A stretch of DNA of 63,397 nt, filler included, from Craspedostauros australis (Eukaryota), in the NCBI GenBank assembly GCA_030167865.1. It is 8 parts of 8 records of this genome, joined end to end, with 100 filler letters (N's around TTAATTAATTAA, not from the genome) between each part and the next. Parts side by side here need not be neighbours in the genome. Positions count along the whole stretch, not along the records: positions 50,013 to 59,347 come from JALAGF010003285.1; positions 59,448 to 63,397 come from JALAGF010003287.1; 6 more parts are not named here. The stretch is one strand, 5' to 3'. Numbering within the stretch: position 1 is the first letter of the stretch; every line of letters begins with the position of its first letter. Positions 47,463-63,397 of the stretch are shown in pieces. The notes under the pieces are model-generated. The model ran no database searches, was not told where the DNA came from, and saw only the letters and a program-made list of their open reading frames with translations. The translations under genes were made by a program, and so were the position numbers.

Positions 47463-50012
47463 ATACGACTAGGACAAGCAGACATGGAACACGCCGCTCT
47501 TGCTCATCTCCACATGTCATCATCGTCGTTCTTCTTGATCCGCAATTCTCGTCTGTGCTTGGGCAGGAGGTTGTTGCGGTCTGATTTTTCACAAAGGTAA
47601 ACTCTCTGTGTTTCGGCACGCAACACGCAACCACCACAACTCATTCGGCAAAAGAACGCTCTTGGAGCAGAGCAGCGGAAAATACTTCAAGATCTTGATC
47701 ATTTCAACGCAAGAACGCAAGCGATAAATCGGTATCTGGGTTTGCACCTTCCCCAGCAAAAAAAAGGAGAGAAAAAGACTCGCCAACTGATGGGGTGGAA
47801 GGGTCTTCCGTGATCGTCACCTTCGTGACACGAACACAATCAGGTTGTCGAAGCTCGTAGGGAACGAGAGCTGAATGTGCTTTGCGGAACGAAACACCTT
47901 CTTCGAATTTTGGTCGGGCGCACACGGCGGGAGGACGGTTTATAGTGGTCTCGAAATATGTATCTTGGAGTAGAGTATCGCTTCTTGCGACTTACAATGA
48001 TGGGTGAATTAGGCCTGTGCCCCTGTGAGCGCAGCTTTGGCATGAACACTCCAACGCTTATACAGTTTACTGTGCAGCTGCACCACTCAACAATTGCGAA
48101 CGTGCTGCACTGGCTCAGGAGACGCAAGTGGGGGTTTCTGCTCTTGAAAGTAGGAACCGTTTCGCGTTGGTGCCGGACTTTGTGGCTCTCCACTTCACCC
48201 TCACAAGGCATTCGCGTGACGAATACAACACAACTCTGCACAAGTTTCGTGACCTGTTGTGGACAAATGTTCGTCCGCACAGCGAAGACTCTCTGTTGGG
48301 CGAAGACAGAGAGGCATTCGATGACCCTTGAGATCTTCTGTGACTGTCGGTGACCGCTTTGACGACTACCTTCTCCAACCACGTTCACCGACATCGACAA
48401 GACCAATGTGTTTGTGAAGAGAGTGAAGACACCATCAGCAAATCCTCCTTCTCTTCGTGCGATCTTTGAATTGGTGTCATGCATCATGTGCGGACACAGC
48501 CAACATCGACATCAACATCGACATGATGACAACAGAACGCCACTTGCGTCGCGAAGAGATCCTTCCGCAGCAATACGAGCATCGTGTGGATCAAGGTTGA
48601 AATGGCCCCGAACGAGCAATCTGGGAATGAAGGATGGAGGATAGAGGATAGAGAGTGTACCTGAATGCATCTGTGGTGCCACCACGCCGCGGAAGAACGT
48701 TCAGAGGCCATGAACAAAGCATGGACAAAGCATGATGGAAGCAAGAGACGACCTTGCATGAAAGTCGCCGACACCGACCACGCCATGGCTCCTTTCTTGT
48801 GTAGCTCCATTCCATGTCACCTCCAGGAAGGAGCAGATTGTACACCAGGTACAGCCAAGATCTCAACAACACCAGTGGAAGCACCAGCGCGGAATGAAAC
48901 GCATGTACGACCTAGGCGTAGCACCTCCAGCTGCAGCGTCTGTTCCGCGTCCATCTCTGCAAATTCTCTATTGGAGCGTCATCATCGATTTGGGCATCAT
49001 CAACAGCTCGAAGAACCTCCTTGATAGTTGGAATGCTGTCGCTCAATTGTGGCATCGGTGTCGTCTCCAACGACTCATCCGCTCAGGTATCCACTGGCCA
49101 CTGGATCGGTCTGATCTTGATCGTTCCCAGCACCACCCGTGCGCATCTCAACAGCAACATGATCGTGATCGTGATCGTGATTGTTGTCCAAGTGTGCCCA
49201 ATGACAGGAGCCATCAGCTACCGTGGATACTGAGAAGCCACAATTAAACTCAAGGGATCCTGGAGCGGCTCGGGGATGCGGATGATGTTCCCCACGATTG
49301 GGAATGTCGCACATTAGTAGGTATAGTACAGCATGCCAGGATTCAAATCAATCGTTCCACATGACAACCTACTGAGCGGATTCTTTACGGTGTGATCATA
49401 CAAGCTACATGAGCCACAACGTGCGACTGTCAGAATGCAAGCGCGGCCCGAAGTTGGAAAATGATGATGCGCGCACAGACGCGGGACGGCGCATCATCCT
49501 CACCCTCCACCAGCCCTCCAGCTTAAGCTTCGTCTGACAGCTTATCGACAACGCTGTGCTGTTCAGCAAGGGGCTGTTAATGTACACGGGCAGCCAGCGG
49601 TGCATGGAGAATTTCTGGCGGTCAAAACCCACCACGCATCAGATAGATGGAATCATGCCGATCATTACATCACCATGGTCAACAATCAATCCCGCATCCA
49701 CAAGAAGACGGTCCACGAATGGGCCAAGCTCTTCAGTGACTAAGCGCAGAATGATCCAGCGGAGAATGGTGAGGCATTCGTTGATGGTGATAGCTGCTTC
49801 AGTATGAAGCACTGAAGCACGTAAGCAGTCGTACAGCGCACCTACAGCCAACAATAGCTCATGCATGAGGAACAGCAGGACTTGCTCCGTTTGCGCAGAT
49901 TAGCGGCAATCANNNNNNNNNNNNNNNNNNNNNNNNNNNNNNNNNNNNNNNNNNNNTTAATTAATTAANNNNNNNNNNNNNNNNNNNNNNNNNNNNNNNN
50001 NNNNNNNNNNNN

Positions 50013-52093
50013 TCGATGATGACTCCACCGAATCCCTCGTCGAGCAGGAAATCCATTTCTTCCTCGGTTTCGACGTCCACGTACTCGCCGTTGTCGTCCT
50101 TGATCATGGCGCTGCTCATGGCGATGATGTCCTCCGAGAACCATGCTGTCGTCGATTGGTTGATTTCCGAGGTGCATCGGATACCAATGGTGTGGATGAG
50201 TCCAACTGCTTGCGCGAATCTTTCTTCAAAGGCCACGACGTGTATGGCGTCCTCTTTTCCATCGGCCATATGCGTTGTGCTGACGTCATGGATCATCGGG
50301 CTTCCGTCCACGGTTTGCCTCGCCAGGAATTCACGCAGAGTCGTGGTATTGGTCTCCGGATCTTTCGTATCCAGCGCGAAGTCTCCTTTGAGCTGCTCGT
50401 ACTTAAGTCGTCGTACGTAGTTCTGGTGCTTACGTATCATTGCTTGCACCTTCTCCGCTGTCTTGGCTCCCATCACTGATGTGCCGGGTTTTGGCACATA
50501 CCTGTAGTTCAAGCCTTTCCGATCGCCGTCCTTGGTGTTGAAGATCTTGCCAAGCAACTTGGAAGCTCTGCGTGCGTCCTTGACGTCTGCGTGCAGGTGG
50601 AGGGCCATCCACGGAGAGTTGTACCAGCTTCCTCCGTTCTGAAGGTGTTGGTCCTTGACTTCCTCTGACACTTTGCCCATGAACTTGACCCTTCCTCCGA
50701 CTTTGAGTTTGGCTCGCTTCTCCTCCAGTAGTTGATTGATGACCTTCAGCGCCTGTTTTGCCTTGGTAAAGTTTCCCGAGTATGCCATGAACCCAATTTC
50801 CGTGGTGTGTTCAGCGTCCTTCAAGTCCTGTATGTAGGAGTATTCGCCTTCTTGGTACGCTCCTTCGAGTTCCGTGTTCCAGCTTGTAAACATTTGCATG
50901 TCCACGTTGGAAGAGAGCAGGATTTGCAGGTAGACGTCCTCACTTTTGGATGTTGGGTTGGCTCTTCCGATGTAGTATCGAAGGTCCTTCCATGCTGCTG
51001 GGATGTCTGCCGATGTGACGATGCACCCTTTGGACTTGTTCTTCTTGTACCAGGGGCTGATGACTAGGCTTGCGTCCATGCCTTTTGCCTCCTCGTACCA
51101 CATCCCGAATCTTTCTTGGAAGTCCCTCACCGGAGTGCGCGATCCTTTAGCGATTTTTAGTCGCATCTCGAACCTTTCGTAGTATCTGCGTTTTGGGGTG
51201 GAGATTTGCGTTGGCTTCTTTTTCTGCGTTGTCCATCCCTCTTCTTCGGTTGGGCGGTTGCTCGGGTTGTTGTCCGTTGCTGCTGGAGCTTTCGCTGTGC
51301 TGAGCTTTCCGTTTGCGTCTCGCGGAGCTGGCGCTGTTACTTTGGTGGTGGTAGTGAAGGCTGTGAGGTTGGATTGTTTGAGCGGTTTCTTGTGGATGAG
51401 TGCTTGAAGATCGTAGCTGTCGTCGTCGCTTTCAACTTGCATTCCCTCTGTGTCTGTGTTCACCTCTGGGGGCGGGTTCTCATCCATGTATTGACACCCC
51501 ATGTAGTTCGTGGCTGCTGCCCACAGGATGGTCATCTGGTTGGTGGCCATGGTCTTCCCGCCTGGCTTGAGCGCGTCCTTAAAGCACTTTGCTGGATCTG
51601 TGAGAGACAGATCTGCAACGAGTTGCTTTATGGCTACCCTCGCTGGGTCGTCTGGCTGGACCTTGGCTTTGCCCAGTCGCGTGGTGCGCCCGTCCATCAC
51701 CGTTTGGAAAAATGTCGTGGTTTCTTTGATGGTGGGCATGGCCGCCGACACAAGTGCCGTGTCCTTGCCCTCCCACGTCGCCTTCATGACAAGCGTTTTC
51801 TTTGTTTGGTTGTGAAGTGCTCTCTCCTCCTCGCCGTATACCTCCCCCGGCTTGAAGCCTTTGGCTTGACGTGCGATCGCTTCTTGCAGCTTTTTCCACC
51901 TCGCTGTGTTGGGGTCTTTCCATGCTGTGGACACTTCTCCTCTTTTCTCCATCATTTCTTCTGCGTTTCCTTTCGGATTTGGCTTGGGTGGTGGCTTGGG
52001 AGAAGCTGTCTGCACAGCCGGTCCTTGGGCATCCTTCATCTCGGTGTCGTCGACGATGTCGTCTGCGATTCTCACTTGTTTGGTCGTCTTCAT
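50013..52093 (-). mobile_element. Probable ORF1 (gag-like) of a diatom non-LTR retrotransposon (Ambal-like); ORF2 would lie beyond the contig end
   Basis: Intronless open frame of about 690 codons from MKTTKQ. Lys/Pro-rich N-half, then ISPW...DIP...YY, EIGFMAYS, ALH, YRYVP, KHQNY pattern recalled from diatom LINE ORF1 proteins. A/C-rich leader. No RT is visible, so the assignment is inferential. Confidence 0.55.
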
Positions 52094-52240
52094 TGTCGGT
52101 TTTGGATCTTTCGTGTCACGTAGAGATTGCTGTAGATTGAGTACTGGTTGTTTTTTGGTTTGTGTGTTTTTGTTTTGTTCTAGTGTTATCGTTGGTTTCG
52201 TTTTTTCGGGTTCTGGTATTATGCCTCTGGTATCAAGAAG

Positions 52241-53687
52241 ATGCCCATGAAGTGGGACCTTCTGCCTTGGCGTATCAGCCACTTTTCTGTCACGGCCAGT
52301 GCTGCCCAGCGGCTTTTCCACAAGCTCATGGTGGCTGAGGTTCTTCAGATTTGTGCTCGTGCGGTCCTCAACGCAAAGAAACACAGCCCAACCATGGATG
52401 ACTTCACAAAGCTTGTATTAGGAGAACACTCCATCACCTTTTCATCAGGTTTTGGTCCAGCAGGGTTGGGCATGAGGTTCAAAAACTGTGTGCAGTTCAT
52501 GATTGGCTTCACAACTCAAGCATGCTTCAATCTTTCAGTGGAGGAGATGTACTCCACCAATATTCTTCAAACTGGCAGTGGATTTCCAACCAGGGAGGAG
52601 TGCATGCAAGCATGGGACCTCATTAAAGATTTCGACAAAGCACCAGAAAGGGATCAACCTACTTACCGATGGTTAACTCTGGAGAAGTGCTGCAACGAAG
52701 TGCTGGATCACATGGTGCTGCAAAGTATGACATCTGAGAGGTACATTGCCCTTGACAACGACAAAGTGCAATGCATAAGTCGTGGCAGCAAGAGCAACCT
52801 TTGCAGAGTACGACACATCCAAAAAATTGGTTTGGGTACGTGTGCCATGTCCATCGCAATGTTTGAGTGATCGTGTGCTTTGCTTCTTGGCTGAGTTGAA
52901 GCCAAATGCATCCATACTCTCAACCTATGTTCTTTTCTTGCATTCTACTCTCCTTCTATTCTTCCTCAGCCTTGTTGCCAACACAATGACATTCACCTGT
53001 TCCGGTATGCCATGTGGTCTGTTCTAGCTCAGGAGATCTCAAGGCGGAGATACAAAGTTGACACTGGACGCCATCAAGCAGCAGCTCGGGAAGGGAATGC
53101 TGTGGCTGGAGGATGTAACCGTCTTGTTTGACCGAGGCTACAGCTGCGAAGAGATAGTAAAAAATCTTATCGAAATTGGAGCTGATATCCTCAGCACCCA
53201 CAAGCGCGACGGATACCTCCCATTTGATTTTGGTCAACGCGAACGGAGACAAAAAGGTCAAATGGATCTTCGGATGAAGGGGATACTGTACATTTGGATT
53301 GCTTCCACTGACAAGATACCAAACAAGGTATTGGCAGGCCATGTCATGAGGGACAACAGCAAGATAGTGTTTGGAGTTGACACCAAGAGGGGTGGCTTTG
53401 AGTGGGATCTGACTCATGTCAACTTTGCTGATGGAAGCTGTATGACAACCTTGTCAATGCTCCTACTGATGCAGACTTGCAGAAGTCTTCCTTCCCCAAT
53501 GTTTCATACCATTTGCATACAACTACGGCGCATGCCTTGCAGTGCAAAAAGGAGAGAGGAATTTGGCGCATGCTGATCATCTCTTCCTTGTAACTGATGG
53601 TGGAGACCAAAGACGAGATGCCATGGCTCAGGTCCACATCGCCCAGGAGGAATTGCAACGCCAACAAGAAGCGGCCACAGCAAGATG
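52241..53687 (+). pseudogene. Decayed DDE transposase, piggyBac/IS4-like
   Basis: YIALDNDK (first catalytic-D region) and VTVLFDRGY...GADILSTHKR...LPF (second D region) in broken frames. Cut on the right by the LTR at 53688. Confidence 0.55.
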
Positions 53688-54348
53688 TGTTAGGAATCGA
53701 GGGTACGACTCTGTCGAAGATACCCATGATTTCCGCAACTCCCAACATTATTCGTCACACCTTTGGATATTATTCATTCCACCCACGAACCAAATCACAC
53801 ATGACTGACCTCAGTCTTACCAAGTAAATCAGCCTGTCCTCCATGAATCAAGAAAAGCCACGACATCGGAAAACAGGACGTCCCAGCATCAGACACGGAA
53901 TCATGATCAAACCAAATATCGACGTCATGGTGAAGGAAGATGGTGACTGACAGATTGGTGATCACCCCATCTGGAGAACAAGACACGTGCCACTCACGGA
54001 CTAGAACAATTCAGAAAGGTCATCAAGCATGACACCAATCGTAGAGTTTGGTGTCAGGAGATCAAAAGAGAAACGCATGACTGTGGAATCGTACCACAGC
54101 GAATGTAGATGATGATATGCATGACGAGATGCATGATGATGATGCCTGCGGATTGGATTGATGAATGCAAGCGAGAGGTTCATGATGATGAGATGCATGA
54201 ATGCAACAGTATAACATGATGCTGCTGCAGAAGATGCTATATGAGAAATGAAAGTTGAAAGAGCTGAAGAGAATGAGCTTACAGTTCTAAGACAGTACAA
54301 TCTAACAACCAAATAGTTCCTACTAACATTAACCCCGGATTTCCAACA
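53688..54348 (+). mobile_element. Solo-type LTR, copy 1 (661 bp)
   Basis: Starts TGTTAGGAATCGAGGGT and ends CCCCGGATTTCCAACA. Both ends are homologous to the reverse complement of 55290-56075. Flanks (AAGATG / TTCGTC) are not a TSD. Confidence 0.75.
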
Positions 54349-54441: not shown

Positions 54442-56336
54442 CTAGTCGTGACCCATGCCTTCGCGAGCGGTCAGAAGCGCCTTGTCTGGATCGAATGCAG
54501 GGTAGCCGTTCCCAAGTTCGATTTGCGTGATCACAGCAACAGCATGAAACACAGTTTGGTGTTTGTCGACATGGTGGCGCCATTTCTGGCCTAGACGACC
54601 CCACTGCTTGAGTCTGCCGTTGATCGTTTCGTGACGAGCTCGCAAGATACCATCAGCCTTGTACGTTGGGAGGAACACGGAATCATCGCCCCTGTACCCC
54701 TTGTCTGCCAAAACGAGTTCGCCTCGGCGCAGTTTGCCTTTCAGCTCCATGCGAAACAACGTGAGATCATTGGCCAAGCCACACGGGAACGGTCCATTCA
54801 CCCAGACAATTTCGCCGTTCGTGATGGACACGGCAACTTCGTACCTCAGTCCTGCAGCATGGAACTTTTGCGAATACCACACTCTGTTGAACGGTCTTGG
54901 TTCGTTGGTGCGGAAGTCGGTCCCGTCCACAGTCATGAACGCACTAGTGTGTTCCGATGCGCCGAGCATACGATTCTCCCAAATGATCTGTTGGACCCCA
55001 ATGAGTCGTGTATCGTGTTCAGTCGTGGATGAAAATAAGGGAAACAACGCGTGGTGAGGGTGGGCGTTTCAGTCAGTCCCAGTTGGATCCTGTGTGGCGG
55101 TTGACATTCGCATTGCAATCAATGTAGTCGTAGCATGTTCAAATTGTCGCGCAATAGAGCAAGATGTTAGACTGTCCTTACCACATCATCCTTCAGATCC
55201 GCTATCAACTTCGCCATGGTCCACGCCCATTTGCGAAAGGTCTTTGGTAATACCTGCATCATTCGTGCCACGACTGTCTCCGCAAGATATGTTGGAAATC
55301 CGGGGTAGTAGTATAGTCTAATGCTTATTAAACTGTACCGTTTCAGAACTGTGAGAACAACATCTTCATTTCTCGTTTCCTCAAGTCGCTTGTTCATGAT
55401 AATGCTGGAGGCACCCTGTAGTTGCTCCTGCATTCATCATAACAATCCTCCTCCATTCACATCTTGTTGTTCATGACAGGTGTATTTCATCATGCTTGTT
55501 CATAGAGGTCTCCTCCTTCACTCCTGCGGTGCATGCATGCCGATGCTCGATTCACTCTCTTCTGATCAGGCATCCATCACTCATTCAGTACACTCTTCCG
55601 TGTTGTTCACTCACTCTTCTCACATGTTCACTGGTGGTCACACTTGGTTCAGAACATGGAGTTCTGGCACGATTAGTCCAGTCCTTCGATGATGCTCCAG
55701 TCCGCGCTTTGTTCTCCTTCGGCGGTTCTCTGCCAGTCACGTAATCATGTTCTGAGTTCTGATTGACACAACAGTGATAGCGATTTCGCATAGATATTTC
55801 GGTTCGACTGGTCAACCCTCGTGCTTGGAACACTTCGGTGTTCCAGTCTCCCTTTTGCATCCATCGTTCGCCATGTTAGTTCGCCAATCATCTCAAAACA
55901 TGTCACATCATTAGTCTGTCCGTCTTCCGTCATACTCTTGACACACAGAGGAGGAGGTCCACAATCGACTTGGGAGCGTGTCCGACTTTGGTAGATCAAT
56001 CAGTCTATTTTTGGTATTTTGGGAGGTGCGGCAATCTAGGATAACACGGCATAGTCGCACCCTCGATTCCTGACAAAGATACATTCGGAGAAACGCGCAC
56101 ATCCACAGGAGATGTTTTGGCTTCACATGGTCGGGCAAGAGGTTCGCCCCAAGCAAGTCATCCCACAGGAGGTGCAAGATGGAGGGATCTGTGCCAAATA
56201 CGGACCGATAGTCTCTCGTGAGCAAGTTTGTCACGTGCTCGGCCCCAGCCAAATCCAGATTCGTGCCAATTAAGGCGAATCCTTCAACAGCAAAAGTTCC
56301 ATCAGCAACCGTGTGAGGGTCTGTTGGCACGTCCAT
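54442..56336 (-). mobile_element. PIF/Harbinger-type (DDE_Tnp_4-like) transposase interrupted by a solo LTR; coding pieces 56336-56076, 55283-55182, 54987-54442
   Basis: N-terminal YRSVFG...LW...KHLLW..FLRMYL, then AETVV...KTFRKWAW...IADL, a GTAAGG...CAG intron, then IIWENR, VDGTDF, WYSQKF, GLRYEV, VWVNGPFPCG, ADKGYRG, RARHETINGRLK. The D-D-E triad is intact. Confidence 0.88.
55290..56075 (-). mobile_element. Solo LTR, copy 2 (786 bp), with 6-bp TSD AAGATA
   Basis: TG...CA termini with imperfect terminal inverted repeats (TGTTGGAAATC vs TGTCAGGAATC). AAGATA lies at 55284-55289 and 56076-56081. Removing the insert restores the transposase frame. Confidence 0.88.
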
Positions 56337-59300
56337 GGTTGGTTCGTGAATGCGTGCTGTGGGCTGGCGTGTGGTGCTCACTTTGTGTGCGCAACGGTAC
56401 CGTGTGCCATGTAGCAGCTTGCTCTGCAAAAAACAATCGATACCCAATCCACACAGAGTGGAGTAGCACTAGAGCAGAGCAGAGCAGAGCAGAGCAGAGC
56501 AGAAGAGGACAGTGATGCAGCACAGAATTGGGAAGAGTACAGCATCAACTTGCCTGCCATTTTGTTGCTATTCTGCTGCATCGTATTTCTGTTGGTGTTT
56601 TTGGCGCTCGTGAACAGAAACTGCAACAAGTGTGCATCTCCTGTTGATGAACGCAGGCCACAACGGAGGTGGATTTAGTCGCACGATGGGAGAAGCGTCG
56701 TACAGTCGTCTGTAGAGGAGTCTAATTTTTCGCGAGAAGCCTACGACTAAAAAGCACGACTGTTCCGCGATTCGACGCGGTCGACTAAAAAATTTGAAAC
56801 GAGTCTTGGATTAGTCTTCTAGATGAACCGAAGTACCGCTACAATTCGTGGGACACAGTTAGGCGACACCTCGCCCCACCCGTTGGACAAGAATGCAACG
56901 GGAACAACCGCGAGCGTGCTCGTCACTAGGCGAGCGTATTGATGACATGTGCCACACCGTGCATGGGCACCGCTACCAACTTCGCTACCAACTCTGCAAC
57001 AATGTCACCTGTGTTGTGCCTGCCAGAGACAAAAGCATCGCAAGAACTATCGCTGAGAAACAGGAGGTGCCGATTTGTACGGTACAGTACTCCAGTACTC
57101 CTTTCGTAGAATACTACTCAACGGTAGCACCCAACGACAGTTACGAAATGCAACTTGTCGTTGGTAGGAACGAACCCGAGGAGGCTTGGAGGGAAACGCG
57201 AATAGGAGAAGCGATTGGGGGAGCGTTGAAGCCGGGAATGGAAAGAGAGAAGAGGAATTGGGAAGAGAAACCACATCCAATTCCACGAAGGAAATCCTGA
57301 GCGTTCCGTCTAGTTTACTCCTTTTGTTCGTGACAATGTAGCGATGAAGTGAAATACAGCACTGGAGATAAGGCAATAATCCCGTCTCCATTTCCCATGG
57401 GGGAAATGGAGAGCGATTCATCGATGATTCCTGTGGATTACCGTTGGATCGCCACGACGATTGCGTGGAAATCTATTCGTCTCGGTAATCCTCCCTCCCC
57501 ATCGCCATCACCCCAACCTGATGGATCGCCATGGCAAGCGGATCGGATTAGGCGGGAATCCGTCCATCTGAACAGTCTGTTGCAGTTTTTCCTCACCAAC
57601 ATTGTCCTCCAATCAAGCGTTCGTGTAGACTAACGGAAATGCTAGTTTGTCATGGGACTAAATCAAGCATTCAACCAATGAAACATCTACTTCCACATGG
57701 CCACACTGATCCAGTATGCCATATGAAGGGGAAAGGAGCTTGAAAATTTGACAAGTTCAGTGTCTGTTGCAATCAAGACACCCTCTGCCAATTTTGTGTT
57801 CCCGATTTGTCTAGACTCAATTGAAATTTCTGTTTCTCACAGTATCATCTATGCTGAATGCAACTAATGCAATTGTGGCTTGTTGGTAATCATCCAAATC
57901 ATCATGCCAAGCAACATACATAGCTTTTACTACAACATGTTGCTTCACAGGAGTTTGCAAAACCCTGCATTTACATCTCATGAATCAAAGCCAACACTGA
58001 GGTGCACACAATGCCACGACGCTGGACACAGACCTGCCACCAAGTCCAACTCCTAAAACAGAAGATCAGGAGTGGTGAAATCCCCCCTGAGCAATCCTGG
58101 CGACAGGTTTGGAACAACAATGAAGAAGCAAGGTGCTTCATCGAACCAGAATTCAAACATACCCTTCGTCGACTCCGCCAGAAGGTTCTCGAAGAAAAAC
58201 GTAAGTTCCTTGTTGACCTGAACAGCTGCTTCCTGCTGATGTCATGACATTCCTTTCCTGCATTGGCACTCACACTTTCTCAGGTTGCAGAGGCGCAATA
58301 GCGTCTCCCACCGTGACAGAGCTCGCAGAGACGCAATAGCGTCCCCCACCGTGACAGAGCTCGCAGAGAACGCTCGAGACATCCGCGACGCTGCTCGCAT
58401 GGTTCGGATCGAAATTCCCCCTCCCCTTCCAGACCCACACTCGGACCACGCACCAACATCAACCACGACTACAACACTCGCGCCTTCCACAGCACCAACT
58501 GCTCCCACACCATTCGCCCAAACACAAACAACTACCACAGACACATCAACACCAACCATGTTCACCCACCAACCACATCAACCAACCAACCAAAACAACA
58601 ACAACATGGACATGAGCGAATGGCTAAAGGAGAATGGTAACTTGAACCTGCCTGTCTTGCGCACTTGCTACCTGAGTGACAATGGTGCTCGCATCCTTGA
58701 CCTCATGTTTCAAGTGCCAGGGGGCAGTTGTCTCGAGGATTTCACAGTGTCAGTGGTACCGGGGCATGTCTGTGCGCGTGGAGATGGAGCAGATGGCCGC
58801 GCTTGCTGACGTGGAGGCCGTCCACACTGTTCTTCGTGCCGCTGGCATGGCTGAAGGCAATTCTGTTGTGCCTTTCGCTGACGAGCAAGCCCGCCGCGAC
58901 GCTTATGGCTCCTCGATCGCCAGCCTCAAGCGTTCGCCCAATGGCAGGCCCGTCCGTTGCCAGACCGTTAACCTACCGTTTGCGGTTAACTGGAGATTTG
59001 AAGAAAAGCAGCGATGGTGTGCTGCCTGGTGTGACATTAGTGGAAATCGAAATTCCTGACCCAGCCAATAATGGCTTTTCTAACGCCGGAGTTCTCCTTG
59101 TTCGCATGGTGGAGTTGCATCCGGCCCAACCGCTTTTCTCGCGCGCGACACATGCCAAAAAGCCGCCTTCTACATACCCGATCGCGAACATGAACGCCGT
59201 TGCAGGCATTCCAACATTTAACCGCGCGCCTTCCCACCACTCGATTGCGCGCGACGACAACACCTACACATCAAGCATTGCCACCTCGACGAATGTGTCA

Positions 59301-62300
59301 ACACAACGCCTTCAAATCGGCGTTAAATCAAATGTGAGTACAGTGAANNNNNNNNNNNNNNNNNNNNNNNNNNNNNNNNNNNNNNNNNNNNTTAATTAAT
59401 TAANNNNNNNNNNNNNNNNNNNNNNNNNNNNNNNNNNNNNNNNNNNNAAGATACATTCGGAGAAACGCGCACATCCACAGGAGATGTTTTGGCTTCACAT
59501 GGTCGGGCAAGAGGTTCGCCCCAAGCAAGTCATCCCACAGGAGGTGCAAGATGGAGGGATCTGTGCCAAATACGGACCGATAGTCTCTCGTGAGCAAGTT
59601 TGTCACGTGCTCGGCCCCAGCCAAATCCAGATTCGTGCCAATTAAGGCGAATCCTTCAACAGCAAAAGTTCCATCAGCAACCGTGTGAGGGTCTGTTGGC
59701 ACGTCCATGGTTGGTTCGTGAATGCGTGCTGTGGGCTGGCGTGTGGTGCTCACTTTGTGTGCGCAACGGTACCGTGTGCCATGTAGCAGCTTGCTCTGCA
59801 AAAAACAATCGATACCCAATCCACACAGAGTGGAGTAGCACTAGAGCAGAGCAGAGCAGAGCAGAGCAGAGCAGAAGAGGACAGTGATGCAGCACAGAAT
59901 TGGGAAGAGTACAGCATCAACTTGCCTGCCATTTTGTTGCTATTCTGCTGCATCGTATTTCTGTTGGTGTTTTTGGCGCTCGTGAACAGAAACTGCAACA
60001 AGTGTGCATCTCCTGTTGATGAACGCAGGCCACAACGGAGGTGGATTTAGTCGCACGATGGGAGAAGCGTCGTACAGTCGTCTGTAGAGGAGTCTAATTT
60101 TTCGCGAGAAGCCTACGACTAAAAAGCACGACTGTTCCGCGATTCGACGCGGTCGACTAAAAAATTTGAAACGAGTCTTGGATTAGTCTTCTAGATGAAC
60201 CGAAGTACCGCTACAATTCGTGGGACACAGTTAGGCGACACCTCGCCCCACCCGTTGGACAAGAATGCAACGGGAACAACCGCGAGCGTGCTCGTCACTA
60301 GGCGAGCGTATTGATGACATGTGCCACACCGTGCATGGGCACCGCTACCAACTTCGCTACCAACTCTGCAACAATGTCACCTGTGTTGTGCCTGCCAGAG
60401 ACAAAAGCATCGCAAGAACTATCGCTGAGAAACAGGAGGTGCCGATTTGTACGGTACAGTACTCCAGTACTCCTTTCGTAGAATACTACTCAACGGTAGC
60501 ACCCAACGACAGTTACGAAATGCAACTTGTCGTTGGTAGGAACGAACCCGAGGAGGCTTGGAGGGAAACGCGAATAGGAGAAGCGATTGGGGGAGCGTTG
60601 AAGCCGGGAATGGAAAGAGAGAAGAGGAATTGGGAAGAGAAACCACATCCAATTCCACGAAGGAAATCCTGAGCGTTCCGTCTAGTTTACTCCTTTTGTT
60701 CGTGACAATGTAGCGATGAAGTGAAATACAGCACTGGAGATAAGGCAATAATCCCGTCTCCATTTCCCATGGGGGAAATGGAGAGCGATTCATCGATGAT
60801 TCCTGTGGATTACCGTTGGATCGCCACGACGATTGCGTGGAAATCTATTCGTCTCGGTAATCCTCCCTCCCCATCGCCATCACCCCAACCTGATGGATCG
60901 CCATGGCAAGCGGATCGGATTAGGCGGGAATCCGTCCATCTGAACAGTCTGTTGCAGTTTTTCCTCACCAACATTGTCCTCCAATCAAGCGTTCGTGTAG
61001 ACTAACGGAAATGCTAGTTTGTCATGGGACTAAATCAAGCATTCAACCAATGAAACATCTACTTCCACATGGCCACACTGATCCAGTATGCCATATGAAG
61101 GGGAAAGGAGCTTGAAAATTTGACAAGTTCAGTGTCTGTTGCAATCAAGACACCCTCTGCCAATTTTGTGTTCCCGATTTGTCTAGACTCAATTGAAATT
61201 TCTGTTTCTCACAGTATCATCTATGCTGAATGCAACTAATGCAATTGTGGCTTGTTGGTAATCATCCAAATCATCATGCCAAGCAACATACATAGCTTTT
61301 ACTACAACATGTTGCTTCACAGGAGTTTGCAAAACCCTGCATTTACATCTCATGAATCAAAGCCAACACTGAGGTGCACACAATGCCACGACGCTGGACA
61401 CAGACCTGCCACCAAGTCCAACTCCTAAAACAGAAGATCAGGAGTGGTGAAATCCCCCCTGAGCAATCCTGGCGACAGGTTTGGAACAACAATGAAGAAG
61501 CAAGGTGCTTCATCGAACCAGAATTCAAACATACCCTTCGTCGACTCCGCCAGAAGGTTCTCGAAGAAAAACGTAAGTTCCTTGTTGACCTGAACAGCTG
61601 CTTCCTGCTGATGTCATGACATTCCTTTCCTGCATTGGCACTCACACTTTCTCAGGTTGCAGAGGCGCAATAGCGTCTCCCACCGTGACAGAGCTCGCAG
61701 AGACGCAATAGCGTCCCCCACCGTGACAGAGCTCGCAGAGAACGCTCGAGACATCCGCGACGCTGCTCGCATGGTTCGGATCGAAATTCCCCCTCCCCTT
61801 CCAGACCCACACTCGGACCACGCACCAACATCAACCACGACTACAACACTCGCGCCTTCCACAGCACCAACTGCTCCCACACCATTCGCCCAAACACAAA
61901 CAACTACCACAGACACATCAACACCAACCATGTTCACCCACCAACCACATCAACCAACCAACCAAAACAACAACAACATGGACATGAGCGAATGGCTAAA
62001 GGAGAATGGTAACTTGAACCTGCCTGTCTTGCGCACTTGCTACCTGAGTGACAATGGTGCTCGCATCCTTGACCTCATGTTTCAAGTGCCAGGGGGCAGT
62101 TGTCTCGAGGATTTCACAGTGTCAGTGGTACCGGGGCATGTCTGTGCGCGTGGAGATGGAGCAGATGGCCGCGCTTGCTGACGTGGAGGCCGTCCACACT
62201 GTTCTTCGTGCCGCTGGCATGGCTGAAGGCAATTCTGTTGTGCCTTTCGCTGACGAGCAAGCCCGCCGCGACGCTTATGGCTCCTCGATCGCCAGCCTCA

Positions 62301-62719
62301 AGCGTTCGCCCAATGGCAGGCCCGTCCGTTGCCAGACCGTTAACCTACCGTTTGCGGTTAACTGGAGATTTGAAGAAAAGCAGCGATGGTGTGCTGCCTG
62401 GTGTGACATTAGTGGAAATCGAAATTCCTGACCCAGCCAATAATGGCTTTTCTAACGCCGGAGTTCTCCTTGTTCGCATGGTGGAGTTGCATCCGGCCCA
62501 ACCGCTTTTCTCGCGCGCGACACATGCCAAAAAGCCGCCTTCTACATACCCGATCGCGAACATGAACGCCGTTGCAGGCATTCCAACATTTAACCGCGCG
62601 CCTTCCCACCACTCGATTGCGCGCGACGACAACACCTACACATCAAGCATTGCCACCTCGACGAATGTGTCAACACAACGCCTTCAAATCGGCGTTAAAT
62701 CAAATGTGAGTACAGTGAA
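56076..62719. repeat. 3272-bp duplicated segment: 56076-59347 equals 59448-62719 (offset 3372), on either side of a contig spacer
   Basis: The ORF track repeats identically at +3372. No differences were seen by eye. Confidence 0.95.
58011..59347 (+). pseudogene. Putative transposon accessory gene, divergent from the Harbinger-type transposase (copy 1, truncated at the contig end)
   Basis: Exon MPRRWTQ...LRRLRQKVLEEK, a GTAAGT...TCAG intron (58201-58283), a PT-rich linker, then a beta-rich-looking domain. Frameshifts at 58294-58369, ~58762 and ~59005. Confidence 0.6.
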
Positions 62720-63397
62720 ACGCGCTACTTATGGTTCTATTGTCGTTGCCTTCTTTCCAAGACTAACCCACTGCATTCATTCACTTTCTTTATTGTTCTT
62801 TGTCATGTGACATGTCAGAGTGCAATTCGCTTGTCTGAACGTGGAAACGCAGCGTCTGTCCGTAGCTCGTCGCGCACTGTTCCAACTCGTAGCAGCAGGA
62901 CCTCCATGCGCAGCTCCACCAGCAGCAGATTTGCTGCCTCTGCATCTCTGCGCCATAAAACCGGTCGCTACAACACTCGTCGTCGCCATGCGAAAAGAAC
63001 ACCACCACCACCAGCTTGGCGAAACAACATGGGCCGCGCCATGCGCCATGGCGCGGCCATGGAGACCTTTCAAGACAGAGAGATGATGCCACCGCCACCA
63101 TCCCTCCCACCAGGCCGTCTTCCAGTCATCACAATGGCGGAAGCAAGAGCTCTTGTGGCAGCTCGCCACCGGGAAGATGGCTTCTTGGCATGTGGACCTC
63201 GGGCAGCACAAGGCAAGGCAGCAGCAGAGGCACAAGACAAGGCAGAGGCACAAGACAAGGCAGAGGCACAAAACAAGGCAGAGGCACAAAACAAGGCAGA
63301 GGTGGCAGCACAAGCAGAGGTGGCAGCACAGGCAGAGGTGGCAGCACAGGCAGAGGTGGCAGCACAGGCAGAGGTGGCAGCACAGGCAGAGGTGGCA
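61383..63397 (+). pseudogene. Same accessory gene (copy 2), with a further exon from 62819 running off the window into Ala/Glu/Gln repeats
   Basis: A phase-0 intron AAT|GTGAGT...TCAG|AGT leads to an open frame SAIRLSERG...MAEARA...(AEAQDK)2(AEAQNK)2(AEVAAQ)n with no stop before the window end. Confidence 0.6.
63224..63397 (+). repeat. 18-bp coding minisatellite (GCAGAGGCACAA(G/A)ACAAG then GCAGAGGTGGCAGCACAG units)
   Basis: Directly visible tandem units. Confidence 0.92.

Follow-up and report, generated by a model that had tools for sequence, protein, structure and literature searches.

Transposons related to Harbinger are told apart by the target that they duplicate and by the protein encoded beside their transposase. 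PIF/Harbinger is defined by TWA together with a Myb/SANT protein and ISL2EU by AT together with YqaJ (PMC4482050); Pangu is described as pairing ANT with a second open reading frame (ORF) that has no known motif, and NuwaI, reported there from animals only, as pairing CWG with a Myb/SANT protein (Han et al. 2015, PMC4482050). Here we analyse a window of 63,397 nucleotides (the whole stretch, made of contigs strung together with N-spacers between them) from Craspedostauros australis, assembly GCA_030167865.1, in which a DDE transposase gene faces a spliced second gene, hereafter the partner. We show that the two genes belong to one element bounded by terminal inverted repeats (TIRs), that the core of the partner is predicted to have an alpha-crystallin/CS fold, and that the family is found at CWG or CNNG targets.

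For Harbinger3_DR, both proteins are reported to be required and to interact, the Myb-like protein binding a subterminal motif as well as the transposase (PMC9710019). The role of the second Harbinger protein beyond DNA binding is poorly known, and a conserved, folded domain of crystallin type would give it a defined, testable module. Kojima lists the diatom elements Harbinger3_TP and Harbinger4_TP; Harbinger4_TP, as given there, has termini unlike those of the present element (PMC12730594). No transposon-encoded crystallin-fold helper was found in the literature searched, most subscription papers and Repbase lying outside that search; the one diatom preprint in which both terms occur deals with them separately (10.64898/2026.04.27.720831).

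A two-gene element bounded by terminal inverted repeats

The partner begins at 58011 on the plus strand and lies head-to-head with the transposase at a distance of 1,675 bp, as the original prediction had it (a minus-strand DDE transposase and a spliced gene about 1.7 kb away). Also present are the peptides quoted there, together with a PT linker, a beta-rich domain, a basic Ser/Arg stretch and Ala/Glu/Gln repeats. The two genes are laid out as follows, coordinates after the equals sign being those in a redundant repeat described in the last section.

56336-54442, minus strand: transposase gene, PF13359 (DDE_Tnp_4) match in its last exon (E 4.9e-10)
55182-56336, minus strand: transposase exon 1, 121 codons, split by an insertion, as judged by comparison with relatives
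54988-55181, minus strand: transposase intron, 194 nt, GT-AG, at the same position in relatives
54442-54987, minus strand: transposase exon 2, catalytic DDE domain (the PF13359 match), stop at 54442-54444
58011-58200 (= 61383-61572), plus strand: partner exon 1, predicted three-helix domain (18-member alignment; model pLDDT 89, helices 10-21, 30-36, 45-61)
58201-58283 (= 61573-61655), plus strand: putative partner intron 1, GT-AG, phase 1, at the same place in the intact copy on contig C1935
58284-59333 (= 61656-62705), plus strand: partner exon 2, PT linker and predicted crystallin/CS-fold domain (58600-59147; fold from the intact C1935 copy), three frameshifts
62706-62818, plus strand: putative partner intron 2, from sequence comparison
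62819-63397, plus strand: partner exon 3, with a basic Ser/Arg stretch, a run of Pro and Ala/Glu/Gln repeats, continuing past the window end

With the insertion removed and the single intron spliced, the transposase reads through 302 codons with zero frameshifts, and the catalytic D, D and E are conserved without exception in all ten aligned relatives. Across the genome there are at least 152 matches to the transposase and at least 57 to the partner core. A head-to-head transposase accompanies the partner on 19 of the 49 partner-bearing pieces examined (some near-identical duplicates having been left out) and at 12 of the 16 loci with at least 4 kb of upstream sequence; one of the remaining four overlaps a transposase-bearing contig. 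The linked pairs include many identical copies and represent at least seven subfamilies.

Two complete copies place both genes within a single element. The first (C6649:3421-9439) has a perfect TIR of 18 bp and CTCG at both sides, the second (C5506:3124-9506) has CACG at both sides, and in each of them both genes lie inside the TIRs. The original prediction saw no TIRs and regarded a shared element as unproven; there are indeed none in the window, but they exist outside it, with both genes between them.

The element measures 5-7 kb, and its short TIRs begin GG(G). In the subfamily of the window (GGGAGG...), the target is CWG at 12 of 13 distinct ends and CGG at one, read from ends on separate contigs, as no copy is whole on one contig; in a sister group (GGGAA...), it is CNNG at all 16 distinct ends. 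TWA occurs at none of these 29 ends, and neither the ANT duplication of Pangu nor the AT duplication of ISL2EU was seen at the distinct ends compared. The G adjoining the target may belong either to the TIR or to the target; accordingly, the duplication spans 3 or 1 nt at CWG sites and 4 or 2 nt at CNNG sites. Searches for empty sites found none. Since the two sister subfamilies differ in the length of their targets, the choice of target site by PHIS transposons becomes testable.

Four contigs of the C347 family have 3,744 identical bases in common and five of the C2749 family 6,735. These shared stretches suggest recent movement, the identity being inflated by assembly collapse, and the near-identical intact copies (C347/C4220 and C2749 families) are ready substrates for tests of the crystallin-type module.

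Predicted folds of the partner protein

The core was modelled from 14 sequences (pLDDT 74.6) as a beta-sandwich with inserted helices at 67-108 (~45 residues). In a wide structure search, it gave Z 10.6 to the alpha-crystallin domain 4rzk (rmsd 3.7, 87 aligned) and Z 9.3 to the CS domain 2xcm (rmsd 2.9, 88 aligned), alpha-crystallin and CS folds occupying nearly all 50 rows. The ten best Foldseek rows are all small heat-shock proteins (probability 0.97-1.00, E no better than 3.6e-3), and, independently of these, the core profile has three matches among 1.8 billion proteins, the best of them to a plant protein in which Pfam recognises HSP20 domains (E 3.9e-7). We therefore predict, from the model, an alpha-crystallin/CS fold for the partner core, in keeping with the beta-sandwich reminiscent of HSP20/CS that had been suspected from the sequence. 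The likeness to the alpha-crystallin domains of small heat-shock proteins and to CS domains (Sgt1, PIH1D1, p23) thus lies in the predicted sandwich and the weak profile match to the plant HSP20 protein; the partner core differs in its helical insert, its fused helical domain, its encoding by a transposon and its place below Pfam detection. No partner member reaches any Pfam family significantly.

The N-terminal domain (19 sequences, pLDDT 89) is predicted to be a three-helix bundle, the last helix of which is basic. Homeodomains rank first in Foldseek, at E 3-5, and structural comparison gave Z 5.5 to RecC, 4.3-4.7 to FF domains and 3.5-4.3 to GARP/Myb, SANT and homeodomain chains. Against Myb profiles, the domain from the own genome scored 8-9, within the range of shuffled controls (5.6-11; three of the 20 Myb rows were in the wrong frame), while in metagenomic relatives the first helix has a weak alignment to Myb (probability 29 over 18 columns). 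A search for the trihelix family gave no match anywhere, its controls being silent as well, and YqaJ gave no match, which bears out the contrast with ISL2EU drawn earlier. The further suggestion that the partner is unlike Myb/SANT proteins holds for the sequence, which has no Myb match; the fold, whose three helices match homeodomain, GARP/Myb and SANT chains weakly and FF domains about equally, speaks neither way. On the model, a Myb-like origin of this domain may be considered, being neither shown nor excluded, and the partner may be a diverged helper of Myb type that gained a crystallin-fold domain.

Conservation of the partner and relatives elsewhere

The ratio of nonsynonymous to synonymous substitution (dN/dS) of the core is 0.09-0.34 in all 19 pairs above 60% identity, which indicates that the core is under purifying selection and that the partner is maintained as a protein. 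The partner diverges faster than the transposase.

A scan of contigs from prokaryote genomes, made with the transposase profile alone, returned 33 candidate stretches, of which one was confirmed. It is an AT-rich, intron-bearing contig of 2.8 kb from another organism (L159, 1-2810), placed in a bacterial genome bin, and is most likely a eukaryotic contaminant of that bin. On it lies a head-to-head gene in which both the helical domain (probability 95) and the core (probability 57, E 1e-4) are recognised; the introns match those of the own-genome pair in position. The gene pair is present at the only locus of this type (1/1) found without using the partner as query. Together with the 12 of 16 loci in the own genome, this locus documents the linkage of partner homologues to transposases. 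Within 152-1099 of L159, a retained in-frame partner intron reads as a hydrophobic run that might be taken for a membrane segment.

Three further metagenomic proteins combine the core with a helical N-terminus. The N-domain of the P0003 type has no direct match to that of the own genome, the higher score obtained with alignment A8 being circular, as A8 contains one such protein. A word-index protein search with the partner core (also with longer proteins), searches of PDB sequence profiles and of viral contigs, and a search of metagenome contigs with the core were without useful match, and the ESM Atlas returned a best score of 0.77, which is no match.

More distant transposase families (C6630 3-2558; also C863, C3155, C584 and C5614) have other neighbours. 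One such neighbour gene appears to carry the partner's helical domain twice in tandem (probability 78), and a beta-rich gene beside the C6630 transposase has no profile match to the partner core.

Place among PHIS transposons

A transposase of PF13359 type with an intact catalytic triad and TIRs flanked by a short repeated target (C6649, C5506) are features of PHIS elements, and by sequence the family fits PHIS while lacking one defining feature of each group that could be tested. With PIF/Harbinger elements that carry a Myb/SANT/MADF helper, such as Harbinger3_DR, it shares DDE_Tnp_4, two genes, short TIRs starting with G and an N-terminal helper domain predicted to have three helices; it differs in targeting CWG or CNNG rather than TWA, and in its helper, which shows no match to Myb in sequence and has a predicted crystallin/CS-fold domain. 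A second ORF with a Myb/SANT domain, expected of strict PIF/Harbinger, NuwaI and NuwaII alike, is thus not recognised here by sequence. NuwaI resembles the subfamily of the window in its CWG target (12 of 13 ends) and G-rich TIR start (PMC4482050), but is described as restricted to animals and as having a recognisable Myb/SANT protein, and the sister subfamily here is found at CNNG; this comparison is by description, not by tree. Pangu/Harbinger2, which occurs in stramenopiles, likewise has a second ORF without known Pfam motif (PMC4482050), but is described as duplicating ANT, which the present family does not, and is set apart on that description. Unlike ISL2EU, the family has neither a YqaJ second ORF nor an AT duplication.

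To call the locus an undescribed system, as the original prediction did, is therefore too strong, the layout being that of a usual two-gene Harbinger. New, as far as the literature searched shows, is the predicted crystallin-fold domain as a part of the helper, added to this usual layout; the targets are unusual.

Role of the partner and alternative explanations

We interpret the element, with its two head-to-head genes and short TIRs, as a cut-and-paste PHIS/Harbinger DNA transposon, in which the partner would take the place of the Myb-like helper as an accessory subunit of the transposition complex. Its three-helix domain probably binds element DNA near the ends. Its crystallin/CS-fold domain is probably a module for binding protein, which would hold or chaperone the small transposase of 302 residues and, by analogy with Harbinger3_DR, assist in assembling the transposition complex and in getting it into the nucleus. 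We put the probability of this reading at about 0.55.

Several results weigh against it. None of the 14 core members matches PF00011 (HSP20), none of 18 members matches the Myb, SANT or MADF families of Pfam, and no Foldseek match of either domain reaches E 0.001. The Z of 3.5-5.5 obtained for the N-domain is what a widespread arrangement of helices would give, with FF domains and RecC outranking Myb-like folds, and no subterminal repeat common to both element ends stood out. The covariation of transposase and core identities (rho 0.49 over seven pairs, reached by 119 of 5040 permutations), which is in favour of the proposal, is driven by two close pairs, and the partner tree is mostly unresolved. 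The partner of the second organism has no long tail, which the design therefore does not require. The core was detected beside none of the six more distant transposases with at least 4 kb of upstream sequence, nor beside those of C6438 and C6634a, and by these searches related transposases therefore occur with no crystallin-fold domain nearby.

The partner could instead be an anti-silencing factor that is brought to the element by its helical domain and that, through its crystallin-fold domain, recruits host chromatin proteins or blocks them, without being needed for the chemistry of transposition. Such a role is suggested by the Arabidopsis IDM complex, an anti-silencing complex in which the Harbinger-derived HDP1 and HDP2 are reported to be purified together with IDM2 and IDM3, two proteins that have alpha-crystallin domains (PMC5339849), by the epigenetic cargo described in fungal elements of Harbinger type (PMC12730594) and by the faster divergence of the partner, although fast divergence is described as usual for Myb-like helpers too. 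In the published account of the IDM complex, moreover, these are separate host proteins joined through IDM1, HDP1 and HDP2 having no direct binding to IDM2 or IDM3 (PMC5339849); the likeness to the partner is one of fold and context, and we claim no homology. As the element has no other helper gene, the partner most likely does the usual helper job, and we consider an anti-silencing role possible but doubtful. It is unlikely, too, that the partner is an ordinary diverged helper of Myb/SANT type belonging to a family that may stand unannotated in Repbase, with a crystallin-like fold typical of the C-terminal half of many stramenopile Harbinger helpers. The head-to-head two-gene layout, described as usual (bioRxiv 10.64898/2026.05.26.728016), the GARP/Myb and SANT chains among the N-domain fold matches, the weak Myb alignment of the metagenomic first helix, the catalogued Harbinger3_TP and Harbinger4_TP (PMC12730594) and the motif-free second ORFs of Pangu (PMC4482050) would all suit it; the own-genome N-domain, with no Myb similarity beyond that of shuffled controls, the differing termini of Harbinger4_TP (PMC12730594) and the lack of any transposon-encoded crystallin-fold helper in the literature searched argue the other way.

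That the HSP20-like fold and profile similarity mark a small heat-shock gene picked up as cargo and acting as a general stress chaperone strikes us as very improbable, given that the core has the helical domain attached in every case where the N-terminal exon can be seen, that it has a helical insert within the sandwich and falls below Pfam detection, and that its position next to the transposase is fixed. A host gene lying beside the transposase by chance would agree with the absence of TIRs from the window and with the four of 16 roomy loci where no transposase is seen on the same contig; since both genes belong to one element, it is refuted by the complete copies C6649 and C5506, the seven or more paired subfamilies and the pair in the second organism standing against it as well, and we give it practically no credence.

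An accessory subunit with a crystallin-fold domain that chaperones the transposase or recruits chromatin factors would link small heat-shock folds to transposition, in parallel with the plant anti-silencing complex. Tentatively, and as a rather doubtful conjecture, an algal PHIS lineage might encode a crystallin-fold chaperone-adaptor fused to a DNA-binding domain that both assembles the transposase on the ends and engages host silencing. If true, the plant IDM arrangement would have a mobile counterpart made of a single protein, in subfamilies whose TIR is nearly the same and whose target spacing differs (CWG or CNNG).

Condition of the window copy and neighbouring features

In the window copy neither gene is functional, and the element there would be mobile only with proteins supplied by intact copies. 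The frameshifts expected by the original prediction are confined to the partner, which has three; the transposase has none and is interrupted instead by an insertion of 786 bp. Relative to C1935, the partner has a 38-bp duplication after 61656, lacks 2 bp at 62132 and has 1 extra bp at 62365; as it stands, it reaches a stop after 81 residues, whereas the intact partner on C1935, 71% identical in DNA, has 664. A single RNA run gave coverage only near the 3' end of the partner and none over the coding core, which is no evidence either way on expression. Further features are:

59448-62719, no strand: redundant repeat of 56076-59347 on the next contig, an assembly artefact
55290-56075, no strand: multicopy TG...CA repeat of 786 bp in transposase exon 1, foreign to the element, with a 6-bp duplication (AAGATA) at both sides
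53688-54348, no strand: related TG...CA repeat with no matching flanks, at the expected left end of the element (C1587 comparison)

Positions 56076-59347 and 59448-62719 are identical across the N-spacer (3272 of 3272), and the second partner copy in the window is assembly redundancy, because contigs C3285, C3287 and C3288 all contain the same stretch; a tandem duplication of the partner is ruled out on the same grounds. Past 62719, C3287 and C3288 diverge by a few percent, with unlike DNA beyond the right TIR, and may be alleles or two separate copies.

The left end of the window copy is lost, its left TIR missing: a 93% identical relative on C1587 is similar only from 54348 rightwards and has its TIR about 1 kb past the stop. 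The right TIR lies outside the window, at C3288:4327 and C1935:9107. On C1935 (3977-9107) elements are nested, the right end of the window's element being followed by an intact partner with its own right TIR and then by a transposase of the C347 family. The head-to-tail order there was dismissed as nesting, because a TIR separates that partner from that transposase.

The 786-bp repeat has about 30 near-full-length matches at 83-92% identity among the 40 scored out of 579 candidates, and may be a solo long terminal repeat or a non-autonomous DNA element. Its copies at 55290-56075, 53688-54348 and 52907-53687 carry a motif near-identical to the element TIR about 55 bp from one end. Further left, a frame of 818 codons without Pfam match occupies 49961-52417 (minus strand), and two broken frames at 52184-53576 (plus strand) resemble another DDE transposase, with a weak NF041680 match only (E 0.043).

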